In this document: in pieces, positions 1-17,944 of the stretch
Layout: the number at the start of each line of letters is the position of its first letter
How positions within the stretch are numbered: the first letter of the stretch is position 1
Virus record (IMG/VR): IMGVR_UViG_2675903394_000002
Location: 1 to 24,281 of that record
Reading direction: 5' to 3' (one strand)
Length of the DNA: 24,281 bases
Source of the DNA: a virus
Taxonomy: Duplodnaviria > Heunggongvirae > Uroviricota > Caudoviricetes
Notes under the pieces: generated by a model
Told to the model about the DNA's origin: nothing
The model's database searches: none
The model's input: the letters and a program-made list of their open reading frames with translations, nothing else
Program-made: the position numbers and the translations under genes

Positions 1-3371
<3,371 letters not shown>

Positions 3372-3397
<26 letters not shown>

Positions 3398-3917
3398 TCA
3401 GCAACCCCGGTATCAGTTCATCCAGCGCGGCTGCTTTGTTCATGGCTTTGATGATATCCCGTTTCAGGAAATCAACATGTCGGTTTTCCAGTTCCGGAAA
3501 ACGCCGCTGCACCGACAGGGGGATCCCGTCGAGAATACTGGCAATTTCACCTGCGATCCGCGACAGCACGAAAGTACAGAATGCGGTTTCCACCACTTCA
3601 GCGGAGTCTCTGGCATTTTTCAGCTCCTGTGCATCGGCCTGCGCACGCGTAAGTCGATGGCGTTCGTACTCAATAGTCCCTGGCTGGAGATCTGTCTCGC
3701 TGGCCTGCCGCAGTTCTTCAACCTCCCGGCGCAGCTTTTCGTTCTCAATTTCAGCATCCCTTTCGGCATACCATTTTATGACGGCGGCAGAGTCATAAAG
3801 CACCTCATTGCCCTTGCCACCGCCTCGCAGAACGGGCATTCCCTGTTCCTGCCAGTTCTGAATGGTACGGATACTCGCACCGAAAATGTCAGCCAGCTGC
3901 TTTTTATTGACTTCCAT
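3372..3917 (-). CDS. Nu1: Terminase small subunit gpNu1 (181 aa)
   Basis: The 181-aa ORF MEVNKKQLADIFGASIRTIQNWQEQGMPVLRGGGKGNEVLYDSAAV... matches lambda Nu1 and lies immediately next to cos. Confidence 0.95.
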
Positions 3918-7123: not shown

Positions 7124-7672
7124 ATGGCGAACAATCTTTTTTATACACTTGACAGGCAGCGCACACTGAAGTCAGGCATGAAAATTGAATTAGCAGAACC
7201 GTACTGCCCAATCGTTCCACTTCAGGCTCATACGAGCTCATTGTTTTCCGACGGTGTATCCCGGCATGCAAATAATCTTTTTTTCAACTACCACATAAAC
7301 CTCGTCAGCTCAGACGAACGATTTGGAGCAATAATAGAAATACTACTGGAAGAACGAAGGAAATCACACTTCCCTGAAAAACCATCACGCTTCCAATCAA
7401 TTTTTGCATGTGAGTCTGTAAAAGAAACCGCCTGGTTCAGAGGCTTTTCAAAATCCCCACTTGACACCCCAATATTTCAAGTCAGCTCATCGTCGAACTA
7501 TCATAGAGGTGATATGAATTTGTTAAATCTGAACTGCTCCCCAGTAGAAGTATCTCAGAGGCTGGATCTTTACTGGAAGGGTGAAACAACACAGATTTAC
7601 GAAGGGTATCAACCATTCTGGGAAGTGCTCATTCCATTGCCAGTTATTATTGGTGAAAGAATTATCGAATAA
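7124..7672 (+). CDS. Hypothetical soluble protein (182 aa), first gene of the inverted insertion between S and Q
   Basis: ORF on the strand opposite to the late operon in an AT-rich insert. No TM segments and no family recognised. Confidence 0.6.
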   Translation: MANNLFYTLDRQRTLKSGMKIELAEPYCPIVPLQAHTSSLFSDGVSRHANNLFFNYHINLVSSDERFGAIIEILLEERRKSHFPEKPSRFQSIFACESVKETAWFRGFSKSPLDTPIFQVSSSSNYHRGDMNLLNLNCSPVEVSQRLDLYWKGETTQIYEGYQPFWEVLIPLPVIIGERIIE

Positions 7673-7862
7673 TGGCTCTGACACCAGAATCATTTCCATA
7701 GCCGAACTGACGCTGACAGATTTTTAATTCGCTTATGGCTTTCTCCATTGCTAATAGCGCGTCTTCAGTACGGTAGCAATCAACCTCAAGAACAAACGTT
7801 TTGAGATTGCTACTATCATTCCCGGCGAAAAGCGCATAGCTGGGTTGACCAGTCTGATTCAT
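7662..7862 (-). CDS. Possible small antisense ORF (66 aa) whose start abuts a G9 tract
   Basis: ORF-track entry; the start ATG at 7862 is immediately preceded on the minus strand by GAGG plus a run of G. It converges on and overlaps the 3' end of the 7124-7672 gene by 11 nt. Could be spurious. Confidence 0.25.
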   Translation of the reverse strand: MNQTGQPSYALFAGNDSSNLKTFVLEVDCYRTEDALLAMEKAISELKICQRQFGYGNDSGVRAIIR

Positions 7863-8014
7863 CCCCCCCCCTCAAACGACGAAACCCGCTCGACGGCGGG
7901 TTTAAGCCACGTGACAAAGTAACCACTCTTAACACGATACAATAGTTTTTGCGTACGCGTTAGCATTTTTGTTAAAGTATAAAAATGTAATTAAACCAGT
8001 ATGTCATCACTACA

Positions 8015-8899
8015 ATGAAATGCATCCGAAAACATCCAGCAATAGCTTATACAGTAATTATTTTAGTTTTTGCCTTAATATACAATTTCACTTGGAGCGT
8101 CAATCCAGATTCTTTCATTAAAAACAACGTTCTCAACTCTACACCTGTATATGATGCCGTTAATTTAGCATATGCGAACAATGAGGTAAAAAAAGAAGCT
8201 CCTGTCAGTGTTTCGAGGGAAGTATTTGCAGAGCAAATTTTAACACTTACAAATCAATTCAATAAGATAATAATTGAAAACTTAGAACTTGAAAAAACAT
8301 TATCTCAGCAGCAAGAAAAATTAAAACAAATTAGTGAAAGACAATCAATAAAGTGGGGCGAAAACACCAAAAAATACATAGCAGACAGTTTGAAAGATTT
8401 ACACAAAACGCTTATCACTAAAAATAGTGAACGTACTGCCATAGCATCTTTAAAAAACAAAACAAATGAAAGTCAGATTAACACTATGCTGGCCGACAAA
8501 GATGAAGAAATAGCCAAAATAAACCTTGAAATAGCGTATAAAGAGTATGATGCTAATGTCTATATCTTATCTCATGTCGGCGACTTTAACGATCCAATAA
8601 TCGTTAATGAGCTTGACGCAATCAATAAAGAAATTGAGAAAACAAGAACAAAAATAATAAACAACAAAAAGAAAATAATGGAGATAAGGAATAAATCTCA
8701 ATCTATGCTGGAGAAACTCAAAAAAGATGACCTTAACTTTTTGGATTTCTTATTTTATAGCATAGGAATATCTACAACGACCACCTTTGGTGATTTGTTA
8801 GCAAATTCAAGACTTATCAGACTGATAGTTTGCGTGCAACTTTTACTATCAATTATAGTTTTAGCTAACGTAACTCAAAGATTTTTATCAAAAAAATAA
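8015..8899 (+). CDS. Hypothetical membrane protein (294 aa): N-terminal TM helix, Lys/Glu/Asn-rich coiled-coil domain, C-terminal potassium-channel-like pore helix/filter/TM module
   Basis: Hydrophobic segment AIAYTVIILVFALIYNFTW at about aa 9-27; heptad-like K/E/N/I-rich middle; C-terminal NFLDFLFYSIGISTTTTFGDLL (nt 8726-8794) followed by TM helix LIRLIVCVQLLLSIIVLANV. Very AT-rich codon usage. Confidence 0.7.
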   Translation: MKCIRKHPAIAYTVIILVFALIYNFTWSVNPDSFIKNNVLNSTPVYDAVNLAYANNEVKKEAPVSVSREVFAEQILTLTNQFNKIIIENLELEKTLSQQQEKLKQISERQSIKWGENTKKYIADSLKDLHKTLITKNSERTAIASLKNKTNESQINTMLADKDEEIAKINLEIAYKEYDANVYILSHVGDFNDPIIVNELDAINKEIEKTRTKIINNKKKIMEIRNKSQSMLEKLKKDDLNFLDFLFYSIGISTTTTFGDLLANSRLIRLIVCVQLLLSIIVLANVTQRFLSKK

Positions 8900-12807: not shown

Positions 12808-14334
12808 TTAGAAATAAATCTCACCATCAACCATATATTTGAGAGCACTTATCGCCTGCTGGGCGGATATTACTTTCATTAAAGGATAGTGTTTAAAAAC
12901 AATGCCATTCATAAAATAGATACCACAGGTTTTATTATCCGTATTAATTATGATTTTTTCGAATGTTTTATAGGCAAGTGTACGGCATAACTCTCGTCCA
13001 TTTTTACTGGTTAAGTCAATAGCATAAAAATCACTGAATGAATTTACACCTTTACTCTTCAAAGTTTTCAATGATACCGAAGCCCTTCGTAATTCCTTAT
13101 CTAATAGTCTTATTTTCTCTGCTATAGCGGTAACTTCAGGCGCGACAGACAATGCAACGATTAAATTATTAATTTTCATCTGAAGCTCAATAATTTTTAA
13201 CTCTAAAGTTTCATTAGCATCTTTCTTGTTTTCAACTGGTTGAATTTTGCTACAATTAAAAAGCAATTCATTAATGATATTATAATCAACCAAATCTCTT
13301 TTTATTGATGGCCTGTCACATCGATGTAATCTTCTCATCGGACAAACATAATAGCCATGCAAACTTCCAGATACCGCATGAACAATCATGGTATTACCAC
13401 AAGCCTCACACTTCATAACTGTTCGAAGTAGATTTATTAGCATAGGATTCTTGCTACTATTGCTAATACCAAAAGGTGCCAACCGAATTTCCTGTACAGC
13501 GTAAAACAAATCATCTGATATAACTCTGGGATAATAGCCAGCGATTTCACTTATCCCTTTCCCTCTTGCACGATATGAAGGTACGCATATACCTATCAGA
13601 GCTTTATTCGCTAATAATTTTTCAATTACAGAAGGTCCCCATGCACTTTCTTTTCCTGAGAAATTCTTTACAGCATGATCATTTAAATACTTGGCTATTG
13701 CATTCAATGAGCGCCTTTCCATCCTGAGTTTAAAAATTAGCTCAATAGTTTTCACCCTGTCGGGGTCTGGAACAAAAGCCGTTCTTTTGTCATCTAAGGA
13801 GAGCCATCTCGGACAAGACGCCGTCATAATCGTACCTGATTCCATTGCATCCTGCCGTTTTTTCTTCCATGATAATTTAACCCGACTTGACTTTATCTCG
13901 CTTTCTTCATTTGCCCTTTGTGCTATAAGTATGGCTTTTATTAATGAATATGGCTCATTCAAAGAGTCAATATTATAGACTGTATTGTCGCAAAGAGTTA
14001 TAACATCAATACCGTGATTCAAAATCAATTTCAGACGTTCAATCGCTTCACCGACTTTTTCTCTTGAAAGTCTGTCCAGACTTTCAACTAACAATGTAGT
14101 TCCTGGCAATATATAACCATGCTCTATAGCATCTAAAAATTCCGAAAAAGCTCCTGATTGTGCATGCTTTCCTTTGAATGCACTTAATCCTAAATCTTCA
14201 TATGTTATGGTATCAAGATAATAATCACTATTTACCTTTAACCATTCAGCAATAAGTCTTCTCTGTCGGTTTAATGAGTCACCAGACATCTGACCTGGTG
14301 ATGAAAATCGCATATATGCTATGGCTTTTTTCAT
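12808..14334 (-). CDS. ybcK: Large serine recombinase (508 aa)
   Basis: N-terminal resolvase-type catalytic motif AYMRFSSPGQ and a Cys-rich region (CPRW…C…CEACG…CPMRRLHRC) typical of large serine recombinases; size matches DLP12 YbcK. Confidence 0.85.
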   Translation of the reverse strand: MKKAIAYMRFSSPGQMSGDSLNRQRRLIAEWLKVNSDYYLDTITYEDLGLSAFKGKHAQSGAFSEFLDAIEHGYILPGTTLLVESLDRLSREKVGEAIERLKLILNHGIDVITLCDNTVYNIDSLNEPYSLIKAILIAQRANEESEIKSSRVKLSWKKKRQDAMESGTIMTASCPRWLSLDDKRTAFVPDPDRVKTIELIFKLRMERRSLNAIAKYLNDHAVKNFSGKESAWGPSVIEKLLANKALIGICVPSYRARGKGISEIAGYYPRVISDDLFYAVQEIRLAPFGISNSSKNPMLINLLRTVMKCEACGNTMIVHAVSGSLHGYYVCPMRRLHRCDRPSIKRDLVDYNIINELLFNCSKIQPVENKKDANETLELKIIELQMKINNLIVALSVAPEVTAIAEKIRLLDKELRRASVSLKTLKSKGVNSFSDFYAIDLTSKNGRELCRTLAYKTFEKIIINTDNKTCGIYFMNGIVFKHYPLMKVISAQQAISALKYMVDGEIYF

Positions 14335-14588
14335 GGTGACACCTGCTAACGTATGCTTTTATAAACCTTAGTGGTGGGATATAATTTTTGTTTAATTTTT
14401 ATTTAAAAAGACAATTAAGGTCACATTATCTTGAATATACAACAATAATCGTATTGCAATTTTCTTACGCCATAATCTTGAAAGCACAAAAGAATACATA
14501 AAAAATAAAGACATTAACAAAAAGCATAAAACGAGGCTCATATAAATATAAGAGCCTCCATATTTTAGTCGTTTAGAAACAAATTATT

Positions 14589-14921
14589 TTAATGTGGTGT
14601 GCTTCGTGACAATAAATTAATAACCAACACACCGGCACAAATCAACATCATGCCTATAATGGCTGGCAGGTCCAGCCGTTGGCCGAAAAATCCCCATGAC
14701 AGTAAACTAATCAGGACAATACCGACTCCTGACCAGATAGCATAAGCAATCCCTGTAGGAATATAAGCCAGCGTCTGAGCTAATAACCAGAATGATGCAC
14801 AATAACAAATAATTGTACCAACAGATGGCCATAACCGTGTAAAACCTTCTGAAAACTTCATTAAGGTTGTACCAATGACCTCTGCAAGTATTGCACCACC
14901 AAGATAAATATAAGGGTTCAT
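14589..14921 (-). CDS. emrE: Small multidrug resistance (SMR) efflux transporter EmrE (110 aa)
   Basis: MNPYIYLGGAILAEVIGTTLMKFSEGFTRLWPSVGTIICYCASFWLLAQTLAYIPTGIAYAIWSGVGIVLISLLSWGFFGQRLD... is near-identical to E. coli EmrE with four TM helices. The ORF track extends to 14975. Confidence 0.9.
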   Translation of the reverse strand: MNPYIYLGGAILAEVIGTTLMKFSEGFTRLWPSVGTIICYCASFWLLAQTLAYIPTGIAYAIWSGVGIVLISLLSWGFFGQRLDLPAIIGMMLICAGVLVINLLSRSTPH

Positions 14922-14988
14922 AGCATATTCTTTCCTGTTCAAACTGGAGAGAATTGTACTACAGTTTGAACTCAACTCACCTGTTTCA

Positions 14989-15291
14989 TCATTGTGTTCC
15001 CATTGATGTTCTTTTATATACCCTCAATACCCGTTTCATCGCGGCACTCTGGCGACACTCCTTAAAAATCAGATTCGTGCTCACCTTTCCTTCCCGTTCT
15101 TCTCTGGTAGCGAACCGGTAATACACCGTTCGCCAGACCTTACCATCAACGACCAGGATTCCTGCCCGCGCCATTTTAGCCGCAGCCTGATTTATGCTGG
15201 TTACGGTTGCGCCTGTTACCGCGGCAACGTCCTGTGCACAGAAGCTCTTATGCGTCCCCAGGTAATGAATAATTGCCTCTTTGCCCGTCAT
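14989..15291 (-). CDS. ren: Ren protein (100 aa)
   Basis: MTGKEAIIHYLGTHKSFCAQDVAAVTGATVTSINQAAAKMARAGILVVDGKVWRTVYYRFATREEREGK... matches lambda Ren. Confidence 0.85.
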   Translation of the reverse strand: MTGKEAIIHYLGTHKSFCAQDVAAVTGATVTSINQAAAKMARAGILVVDGKVWRTVYYRFATREEREGKVSTNLIFKECRQSAAMKRVLRVYKRTSMGTQ

Positions 15292-15989
15292 ACACTTGCT
15301 CCTTTCAGTCCGAACTTAGCTTTAATTTCTGCGATCTTCGCCAGAGCCTGTGCACGATTTAGAGGTCTACCGCCCATAACAGGAAGTTGTTTTACTGGTT
15401 CAGGTATCGTCTCACCACGGTTAATTCGCGCTGTCATACAGGTCAGTTCATCGGCAGCCTTGCGCCGTAATTCCGCGTCAGTCAGCGCATTGGCCCGCAT
15501 GTTCTGGTACAAGTTGGTAACCAACCAGTAATGCGCGTTCGATTTCCACGGATAAGACTCTGCATCCGGATACAGGCCACGCTTCCGGCAATACTCGTAA
15601 ACCATATCAACCAGCTCGCTGACGTTTGGCAGCCCGGCGTTAACAGATGCTTCTTCCCGGCACCAGGCGACAAACTGCCCGGGTGATGGCAGGAATGGTC
15701 GATTCTGCCGACGGGCTACGCGCATTCCAGCGTTAACCTGTTCCATTGTGGTGATCCCGTTTTCCCGGAAAGCCAGAACCCACTGGCGGCGGATTTCGTT
15801 CAGTTCATTCTGGTCACGGTTAGCCAGGCTCGCCGGGAAAGTTGCCAGTAACTGGCTTAACACACCGTTGATGATCTGCGCTACCTGCTGTACCTGTGGC
15901 TTTTCGTCGTACTGTTCCGGCATGTTGTTGGCGATCCGGCGCATCTGCTCACAGTCAAAGTTAACCATCTGTGCGGCGATGTTTTTCAT
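15288..15989 (-). CDS. P: Replication protein P (DnaB helicase loader, 233 aa)
   Basis: MKNIAAQMVNFDCEQMRRIANNMPEQYDEKPQVQQVAQIINGV... is colinear with lambda P; start overlaps the O stop. Confidence 0.95.
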   Translation of the reverse strand: MKNIAAQMVNFDCEQMRRIANNMPEQYDEKPQVQQVAQIINGVLSQLLATFPASLANRDQNELNEIRRQWVLAFRENGITTMEQVNAGMRVARRQNRPFLPSPGQFVAWCREEASVNAGLPNVSELVDMVYEYCRKRGLYPDAESYPWKSNAHYWLVTNLYQNMRANALTDAELRRKAADELTCMTARINRGETIPEPVKQLPVMGGRPLNRAQALAKIAEIKAKFGLKGASV

Positions 15990-16915
15990 AGCTCCACCCC
16001 GTAAATCCAGTCAGTGTTCGTCAGGTCGAGTTTTGGTTTGCCGGCTGTCACGCCAGCCTGTTGCTTGTTTCGGTTGATTTCGAGCTGGGTCCACTTGTCG
16101 CGGAGTTTGGCCGGACTTAGCACGTTACCGGACCAGAAGTTGTCCTGGCATGCCCAGCGGAACAGCACGCACATGTCGCGGTGGTTACGTCCGTCACGTT
16201 CACGCATCAGGCGGATATCGTTAGCCCACCCTGCAAAATTCGGTTTTCTGGCTGATGGCGCGATGGTCTTCACCATGTCAAACATCCACTCTGCGGCGGT
16301 CAGGTCTTCTGCTGTCCCCCACTTGCTGCCGCTCTGAATTGCAGCATCCGGTTTCACCACAGGAAGATCGTTTTCTGGTTGGTCAGAGGATTCGCCAGAA
16401 TTCTCGGACGAAAAAGGTTTTATATTGTCTTTTGTTAGTTTGTCTTTTGTGTTTACCTGATTCGGGTAAACGCCTTTACCTGATTTGGGTAAACTTTTTT
16501 TACCTGATTCAGGTAAATTTACCTCTTTCAGGTAAACTTTATTTTTCTTACCTGATTCGGGTAATGTTGACCATTCACTGACCACATTATTAATGCCGGT
16601 ATTCCGCCCGCTCTGAATAAAAATCCCACGCTTTACCAGAACACTTTTTGCAGCAGAACACTTGTGCGGCAATATCCCGGTTAATTCGGAAAGTTGCTCG
16701 TTGCTAACCCAATCCAGTTTTTTATTAAAGCCATATGTTTTGCGCATGACAGCCAGAAAGACCAGAAGCTGGTGCTGTGTTAATCCGGCCAGCATCACAG
16801 CTTCCAGCAACTCATTTGCAATGCGCGTATAACCATCATCGAGATCTGCCACGCGCGGCTCCTTTTGTGCCGCATCCGGCACTGGAAAATTGAATATCTC
16901 AGCAGTGTTTGCCAT
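15986..16915 (-). CDS. O: Replication initiator O (iteron-binding); about 310 aa from the start at 16915, with an alternative upstream start at 17005
   Basis: From MANTAEIFNFPVPDAAQKEPRVADLDDGYTRIANELLEA... onward it matches lambda O. Ribosome-binding site GGGAGGA upstream of 16915. The ORF-track ORF 15986-17005 carries a 30-codon in-frame extension whose ATG overlaps the stop of the upstream gene. Confidence 0.9.
   Translation of the reverse strand: MANTAEIFNFPVPDAAQKEPRVADLDDGYTRIANELLEAVMLAGLTQHQLLVFLAVMRKTYGFNKKLDWVSNEQLSELTGILPHKCSAAKSVLVKRGIFIQSGRNTGINNVVSEWSTLPESGKKNKVYLKEVNLPESGKKSLPKSGKGVYPNQVNTKDKLTKDNIKPFSSENSGESSDQPENDLPVVKPDAAIQSGSKWGTAEDLTAAEWMFDMVKTIAPSARKPNFAGWANDIRLMRERDGRNHRDMCVLFRWACQDNFWSGNVLSPAKLRDKWTQLEINRNKQQAGVTAGKPKLDLTNTDWIYGVEL
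16454..16567. repeat. Replication origin iterons inside the O gene: five copies of about 18 bp (TACCTGATTCGGGTAAAC and variants), flanked by an AT-rich region at about 16395-16450
   Basis: Direct repeats starting at 16454, 16477, 16501, 16520 and 16550. Each has palindromic ends (TACC ... GGTA), analogous to the lambda ori iterons. Confidence 0.75.
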
Positions 16916-17001
16916 AATTCCTCCCGCAATGAGTGTGTTACGATTTGCACCTGAAAGTCGGTTCTGTTCCAGCAGACCGGCTTTCGCCATTTCTGAACCT
17001 G

Positions 17002-17541
17002 TCATATCGCCCCCAGCATGGTAGTAACCATCGCCATCAATGGACCAGCCAGATCTGGGTCCACACGAAACATCGACACAATACCTTCACTAATTTCCTT
17101 CAGTTTCTGGTGGCGTGGTGCGTTGAGAATGACAGCCTGTTTTGCCTCACTGAGTTCCTTTTCCATTTCAGCCAACCTAGCCATGAAGCTATCCTGCTCA
17201 ACCAGGTAACCGCGATATTCCAGCGGTAGTACCGCCAGAATTGCCGGGGTCAGTTCACGCACGTTATTTCGGTATTTTTCAGAATCGAATTTGTTATCGA
17301 GGAAGCGGAACAGCTTCTGGCGTGCACGGCTGACATCATCAGGGAAATCGATGGTGCCGCCGCCCTGCTCCCGATACTCATTCACAATGAGTGTGGCAAC
17401 GACATCCTGATTATCTACAGCCGACCAGGCGCGGACGGCATCACGGATTTTTTCGTGGCCTGGCACCTGTTTTGTTTGAGAACGATTTATCACCGCAGTC
17501 GGGCTAAATCCGCTAGTCTGTTGGTATGTAAGTGGTTGCAT
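17002..17541 (-). CDS. CII-like/YdaT-family protein (179 aa)
   Basis: Motifs NEYREQGGGTIDF and VRELTPAILAVLPLEYRGYL resemble Rac YdaT as I recall it. It occupies the cII position between cro and O. Confidence 0.7.
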   Translation of the reverse strand: MQPLTYQQTSGFSPTAVINRSQTKQVPGHEKIRDAVRAWSAVDNQDVVATLIVNEYREQGGGTIDFPDDVSRARQKLFRFLDNKFDSEKYRNNVRELTPAILAVLPLEYRGYLVEQDSFMARLAEMEKELSEAKQAVILNAPRHQKLKEISEGIVSMFRVDPDLAGPLMAMVTTMLGAI

Positions 17542-17840: not shown

Positions 17841-17944
17841 AACAACCTCCGTGGTTAATTTGAATCAAGATTAAAACTATGGTTGTTTTTAGTCAACAAC
17901 CATTTTCGTTTGATGGAATAAAACCTTGGTTGTACATTTGGACT
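17841..17944. promoter_or_regulatory. Immunity-region operator/promoter region (oR, pR, pRM-like); 9-bp inverted repeat ATGGTTGTT-n7-AACAACCAT at 17879-17903 plus further AACAACC/GGTTGTT half-sites
   Basis: Divergent cro-like and cI-like genes flank 104 bp carrying repeated GTTGTT/AACAAC half-sites. Minus-strand TTGACT (-35 for cro) lies inside the palindrome. Plus-strand TTGATG-17 bp-TACATT ends 6 nt before the cI ATG, implying a leaderless cI mRNA. Confidence 0.5.

Follow-up and report, generated by a model that had tools for sequence, protein, structure and literature searches.

It has been known since about 1980, from lambda, phi80, 82 and P22, that an origin lying inside the initiator gene itself can have different iterons matched to different O N-termini. 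Within the window (the whole 24,281-bp stretch of phage DNA analysed here), a group of direct repeats inside an O-family gene raises the question of whether a functional origin of this kind is present and, if so, whether its repeat sequence confers a specificity of its own, as an earlier note on this DNA had proposed. The repeats and the adjoining AT-rich stretch very probably form a vegetative (theta-mode) origin, with the build of the lambda ori, that belongs to an intact DLP12-type lambdoid prophage.

The prophage and its O gene

Against E. coli chromosomes, 84% of the window aligns at 99% identity, and what lies there is an entire lambdoid prophage, sited at argU/fimZ, with the order intD ... 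bet/exo ... cI, cro, O, P, emrE, ybcK ... rusA, quuD, lysis, terminase, portal. Judged by gene content and order, the element is an intact DLP12-type lambdoid prophage. An AT-rich cargo block between ren and the nin region (12808-14975) carries emrE (an SMR efflux pump), ylcJ, and ybcK, which encodes a 508-aa protein of the serine-recombinase family; the block is also found in the sequenced phage Lambda_4C10 and is therefore mobile phage cargo and no peculiarity of K-12. A near-identical prophage in ST2747 has a gene annotated as the porin OmpC (1083 nt; L034, 7749-8831), flanked by quuD, the Q-like antiterminator, and by the lysis genes, at a place corresponding to about 7600-8700 of the window and to the nmpC locus of K-12 DLP12.

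The genes and candidate signals around the repeats are as follows.

15986-16915, minus strand: gene for an O-family replication initiator, 309 aa counted from the lambda-aligned ATG at 16915
15986-17005, minus strand: longest O open reading frame, which is the database annotation (1020 nt, 339 aa, start at 17005)
15288-15989, minus strand: P gene (DnaB helicase loader), matched by Phage_lambda_P (Pfam, E = 2e-60) and overlapping the O stop
16890-16918, plus strand: candidate pO-like antisense promoter, TTGAAT-17-CATAAT with TG upstream, sigma-70-like, from a consensus scan

The early operon runs cI(+) / cro-like, YdaT-like, O, P, ren-like, the last five all on the minus strand. Upstream of O, a YdaT-family gene takes the cII position, accompanied by a YdaS/Cro-like gene and a divergent S24/HTH repressor, and an ORF 3' of P occupies the ren position; this order would place the origin in the early rightward operon, past the cro and cII positions, where transcription would cross it. 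The divergent cI/cro control region contains a palindrome with a 9-bp stem (ATGGTTGTT...AACAACCAT) at 17879-17903, where the repressor ORF has its first in-frame ATG, that may be an operator, and in a near-identical genome the repressor ORF is annotated about 60 nt shorter.

The O reading frame matches Phage_rep_O (PF04492, E = 1.1e-33) over the full model (1-95), which identifies the N-terminal winged-helix domain. The ATG at 16915 is preceded by GGAGG (GGGAGGAATTATG), the residues GGAGGAATTATG align with the start of lambda O, and O relatives in other genera also start at MANTAE; from the start at 17005, the O frame overlaps the YdaT-like gene by ATGA. The true start of O is probably the ATG at 16915 and not 17005, and the 30-residue N-terminal extension of the annotated protein is, on the same comparisons, probably an annotation artefact. 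The -10 hexamer of the pO-like candidate overlaps this start codon on the opposite strand, a position that corresponds to those of lambda pO and the annotated P22 oop promoter, though the consensus scan found one site against 1.9 expected by chance and is weak evidence. A convincing terminator for the candidate transcript was looked for and none was found, and an Rfam scan of the whole window returned zero matches and therefore no recognizable oop-like RNA.

Five iterons and an AT-rich stretch within O

The elements of the predicted origin, given from the N-terminal side of O onward, are:

16548-16564, minus strand: iteron 1, the extra upstream copy, O-sense TTACCCGAATCAGGTAA, 29 bp from iteron 2
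16519-16535, minus strand: iteron 2, aligned to lambda ITN1, the most divergent copy, TTACCTGAAAGAGGTAA
16500-16516, minus strand: iteron 3, aligned to lambda ITN2 (repeat finder, motif search and lambda alignment)
16476-16492, minus strand: iteron 4, aligned to lambda ITN3 (the same three sources)
16453-16469, minus strand: iteron 5, aligned to lambda ITN4, abutting the AT-rich stretch
16410-16452, minus strand: AT-rich stretch, presumed unwinding element, A-rich on the O-sense strand, ACACAAAAGACAAACTAACAAAAGACAATATAAAACC
16333-16409, minus strand: right flank of the origin, including GAGAATTCTGGCGAATCCTCTGACCA, where near-identity to lambda starts

The five direct repeats of about 18 bp with palindromic ends that had been described inside O are present as five 17-bp cores at 16453-16564, all in the middle of the coding sequence. 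The repeat finder returned one unit in five copies (16452-16573), whose starts lie 23, 24, 19 and 29 apart on the plus strand (29/19/24/23 in the O direction), so that iteron 1, at 29 bp from its neighbour, is off the roughly two-turn phasing. On the O-sense strand the consensus is TTACC-YGAATCA-GGTAA (17 bp) and every core is an imperfect palindrome with arms TTACC/GGTAA; because each unit is itself a palindrome, many inverted-repeat pairs were also reported among the five copies. A search with TTACCTGATTCGGGTAA at up to three mismatches gave eight matches in the 24,281-bp window, which are the five sites, three of them matched on the other strand as well, compared with a mean of 0.04 in shuffled sequence, where eight matches were reached in 0 of 100 shuffles. 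No more copies were found in the window outside 16453-16564 within three mismatches.

Directly downstream of iteron 5 is the AT-rich stretch (GC 0.32-0.33) that the earlier note had placed next to the repeats, and across 16380-16580 the GC content is 0.32-0.38, compared with 0.5-0.6 in the flanks. Its predicted duplex stability is low, not extreme, falling within the least-stable 3-6% of 40-60-bp windows in this DNA, which lends it some support, and with no stand-out relative to the nearby AT-rich emrE/ybcK cargo. The span given in the earlier note (16395-16567) extends from the repeats through the AT-rich stretch into the beginning of the lambda-identical right flank.

Alignment to the lambda ori, which had been suggested as a check, was carried out against lambda 39,000-39,260 and places iterons 2-5 in register on the annotated ITN1-4, with 16410-16452 homologous to the lambda AT-rich region through the core ACACAAAAGACA. 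The proposed lambda layout of an origin within O is thereby upheld, with in-register iterons, a homologous AT-rich stretch and a lambda-like P as the next gene. At the DNA level, identity to lambda is about 50% left of 16453, in the iterons and the N-domain, then 82% in 16452-16393 and 95-100% beyond; this step in identity at 16453/16393 therefore marks a mosaic joint at the AT-rich stretch, one that would separate an origin-specificity module from a P-interaction module. The repeats had further been said to encode the inter-domain linker of O, and the peptide quoted for it, LPESGKKSLPKSGKGVYPNQVNT, is found in the O translation between the Phage_rep_O and C-terminal domains (linker and module boundaries were taken from Pfam limits and module swaps).

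Conservation of the repeats and co-variation with O

Relatives of the O N-domain were collected from one genome per species, plus Klebsiella phages, and the same iteron core was present in 16 loci, from E. coli, Klebsiella, Enterobacter, Kluyvera, Pseudocitrobacter, Xenorhabdus, Pantoea, Providencia, Arsenophonus and Sodalis. When 13 of these 16 loci were aligned by codon, the conservation of third codon positions was 0.63 for the folded N-domain, compared with 0.89-0.93 over the iterons and 0.90 over the AT-rich stretch. Among codons with an invariant amino acid, the third base was also invariant in 4% of those in the N-domain (n = 51), 69% in the iterons (n = 16) and 100% in the AT-rich stretch (n = 9). 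Synonymous positions thus vary far less within the repeats and the AT-rich stretch than within the folded domain, so that it is the DNA that is under constraint. In a profile built from the 81 iterons of the 16 loci, the arms and the flanking TT/AA are 95-100% conserved, compared with 33-63% at the positions just outside the 17 bp; together with the third-position conservation, this profile rules out a repeat maintained purely at the level of the peptide.

The number of iterons varies among the relatives. Loci from Xenorhabdus, Pantoea and Providencia have four, lacking iteron 1, and those from E. coli, Klebsiella and Enterobacter have five, with iteron 1 present; seven occur in Arsenophonus (L018, Arsenophonus nasoniae) and Sodalis, and nine in Kluyvera sichuanensis (L007, 2850-3070), where the array has grown by in-frame repetition of a 48-bp unit of two iterons (29 + 19). 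The three AT-proximal intervals are always 19/24/23 in the four-, five- and nine-copy loci, while Arsenophonus and Sodalis differ. In the Klebsiella phages, the N-domain (about 79% DNA identity) is accompanied by five iterons at identical spacing and, past the AT-rich stretch, by an unrelated O C-domain and an AAA+ loader.

More distant N-domains are accompanied by other iterons, though the geometry and the ACAAAAGACA core of the AT-rich stretch are retained in relatives of every iteron class. In addition to the class found here (class A), relatives carry P22-type iterons (TTACC-N5-GGTAA; P22 gene 18 and relatives in Pectobacterium and Serratia), HK97-type iterons (TTAGCC-N5-GGCTAA; HK97 O and several enterobacterial relatives), Aeromonas-type iterons (AACCC-N7-GGGTT), lambda iterons (TCCCT-N7-AGGGA) and, at one locus, TTAGC-N7-GCTAA. 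Across about 30 relatives, the iteron class co-varies with O residues 78-95, which read LTGILPHKCSAAKS here, LTGMAPTKCSTAKN in P22, MTGIHHTHVCAAK in HK97 and ITKLPVKRCNEAK in lambda. Two natural chimeras from Enterobacter sichuanensis and Klebsiella grimontii (L015 and L017) are of class A at residues 1-77 and P22-like at residues 78-115; both are without class-A iterons and have other repeats (TTTC..CCGT...GGAAA) preceding the same AT-rich element. The co-variation and the chimeras, in which segment and repeats are exchanged together, bear out the proposed match between the iterons and the O N-terminal domain and narrow the specificity determinant to residues 78-115. The same two loci (L015 at 2501-3595) carry an inserted T5orf172 domain (Pfam E = 7e-8), which follows the winged-helix domain and precedes the iteron/AT-rich region.

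A single-sequence AlphaFold2 model of O has a mean pLDDT of 41, with helices at 72-79 and 87-95, too poor for a fold search or for placing a recognition helix, and was therefore used as a hint of secondary structure only; a PDB sequence search with O gave no match and no solved relative. From the co-variation and this poor model, it can be inferred that residues 78-95 may form the recognition helix of a helix-turn-helix. In a Methylobacter MAG (L033, 2800-3000), a distant Phage_rep_O gene contains perfect tandem repeats of about 33 bp that encode TKRGDIQAPLW and include a GGGGGG...CCCCCC palindrome; these are presumably a further class of iterons lying within coding sequence.

The 206-bp origin is present in 2,451 of 5,426 complete E. 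coli genomes (45%). At 97-100% identity it is also present in sequenced, propagating phages. O is 97-99% identical in 15 sequenced phages (among them PhiR34_1, Lambda_4C10/4A7 of the genus Bievrevirus, Perceval and Turner), for several of which the host is given as E. coli K-12 or C. This distribution makes it very likely that the origin is active. The reading of the repeats as a relic, out of use in this genome because the prophage is defective, has in its favour that the DLP12 prophage of K-12, at the same chromosomal site, is known to be defective and that the window by itself gives no proof that this copy is inducible; yet O and P are intact ORFs, the lambdoid gene order is uninterrupted from int to portal in the window, and O is 99.2% identical to that of PhiR34_1 and other isolated phages, with the N-domain and iterons 100% identical in PhiR34_1. 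A relic is accordingly considered very improbable.

Anatomy, homology, DNA-level constraint and co-variation are all demonstrated for the repeats, and it is against these that other explanations of their presence have to be weighed. A mere tandem peptide repeat (LPESGKK-like) in a disordered O linker, with no function for the DNA, would fit units that are in frame, that encode LPESGKK, LPKSGKG and YPNQVN and whose copy number varies in frame from four to nine, but is made highly improbable by the better conservation of synonymous positions noted above, by the palindromic form of every unit, which is needless for a peptide repeat, by the alignment of the repeats with the experimentally defined iterons of lambda, and by the other classes, which keep the geometry yet encode different peptides. 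The palindromes could instead act as hairpins in RNA or single-stranded DNA (for translational pausing, mRNA stability or as a priming signal) and not as duplex sites for O dimers, a suggestion that gains from the coordinated change of the two arms from class to class (TTACC/GGTAA, TTAGC/GCTAA, AACCC/GGGTT, TCCCT/AGGGA), by which pairing potential is preserved. The stems, however, would be just 5 bp with 7-nt loops, the changes in the arms co-vary with a segment of the O protein, no Rfam family is matched, and it is established that lambda O binds its iterons, which are inverted repeats (Tsurimoto and Matsubara 1981; Zahn and Blattner 1985, both cited in PMC8022706 and PMC7466680). Hairpins are thus a very doubtful account of the repeats, and the origin reading is retained.

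Predicted mode of action and comparison with known origins

In the lambda model, O dimers assemble on the iterons, the DNA is bent, the AT-rich region opens and P-DnaB is recruited through the C-domain of O (PMC7466680, PMC3349717, PMC8022706). By homology with lambda, O would be expected to bind these iterons, promote unwinding beside them and set the specificity of the origin. Dimers of the O N-terminal winged-helix domain would bind the dyad-symmetric TTACC-N7-GGTAA iterons, with the four that adjoin the AT-rich stretch forming the core of the O-some, and the wrapped, bent DNA would destabilize the neighbouring A-rich stretch at 16410-16452. The lambda-identical O C-terminal domain would then recruit P bound to host DnaB, host chaperones would afterwards release the helicase, and rightward transcription from a cro-side promoter would pass through the origin. 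Because the flexible O linker is itself encoded by the iterons, origin and DNA-binding domain move together as one specificity module, which is joined at the AT-rich stretch to a module of lambda-type O C-domain and P.

The iteron class (TTACC/GGTAA with a 7-bp centre) is unlike those of lambda, P22 and HK97 and should therefore form its own origin-specificity group. In its full form, the proposal is that the TTACC-N7-GGTAA iteron and the O segment ...LTGILPHKCSAAKS... constitute a separate group, the most widespread in E. coli (45% of complete genomes), that shows no cross-reaction with either lambda O or P22 gp18, despite sharing the P22 arm sequence and departing from P22 in nothing but a 2-bp difference in half-site spacing; the case for it is about evenly balanced. 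If true, the natural classes and chimeras would give a readable recognition code for O-family initiators, and the relatives would show in-frame growth of the iteron array from four to five to nine copies via duplication of the 48-bp two-iteron unit. The comparative series is in any case a clean and cheap system for the co-evolution of an initiator with its embedded binding sites, and also suits the study of recombination of origin-specificity modules at the AT-rich joint.

A search of the accessible literature for the iteron string found no paper printing the TTACC-N7-GGTAA iteron, searches on the origins of phage 82 and phi80 gave nothing useful, and the origin is annotated in none of the phage, plasmid and genome records inspected. 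Phage 82 reportedly has five iterons and is related to DLP12 in the nin region, and the origin described here might therefore be the classical ori82 of that phage. The value of the locus is mainly one of annotation, as the origin is unlabelled in thousands of E. coli genomes and several phage records label just the O gene.

With the lambda ori, this origin shares the location in the middle of O, dyad-symmetric iterons of 17-19 bp, the AT-rich core ACACAAAAGACA and a near-identical right flank (GAGAATTCTGGCGAATCCTCTGACCA), and the core four iterons are spaced 19/24/23 here compared with 20/24/23 in lambda. P is 97% identical to lambda P, while the identity of O to lambda O is 49% in the N-domain, 26% in the linker and 98% in the C-domain. 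As the earlier note had claimed, the iteron sequence differs, with arms TTACC/GGTAA here and TCCCT/AGGGA in lambda; there are five iterons instead of four, the extra copy lying 29 bp upstream, and the gene in the cII position, of the YdaT family, is unlike that of lambda. The rep-lambda specificity group (lambda, 434 and the Stx phages) is defined by iterons ATCCCTCAAAACGAGGGA, which this origin lacks. The lambda-type origins of the Stx phages (933W, P27) resemble it in having extra iterons upstream, on the N-terminal side, of four core copies (six in total), and their O C-domain and P are about 95% identical to this locus at the DNA level, but their iterons are of lambda-type sequence, bound by lambda O, and those here belong to another sequence class. 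The upstream extra iterons of the Stx phages are weakly bound yet required for efficient replication (PMC7466680).

HK97 O and its ori have the same architecture and AT-rich element as this origin and differ in the iterons (TTAGCC-N5-GGCTAA), the helix segment (MTGIHHTHVCAAK) and the DnaB-like helicase partner. Among the classical phages checked, the closest N-domain is that of P22 (59% identity), whose ori lies in gene 18 and is annotated as rep_origin in NC_002371. The P22 ori shares the arms TTACC/GGTAA and the AT-rich ACACAAAAGACAATA element with this origin, but it has four copies with the arms 5 bp apart (7 here), a putative recognition segment that reads LTGMAPTKCSTAKNELIRM (here LTGILPHKCSAAKSVLVKR), and a DnaB-type helicase (gene 12) as the partner of its initiator, where this locus has a lambda-type P. 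Lacking both the N5 centre and the DnaB-type helicase partner, this origin falls outside the P22 gene 18 type. No existing idea is overturned by these comparisons, which describe an ordinary lambda-style origin with a different repeat sequence.
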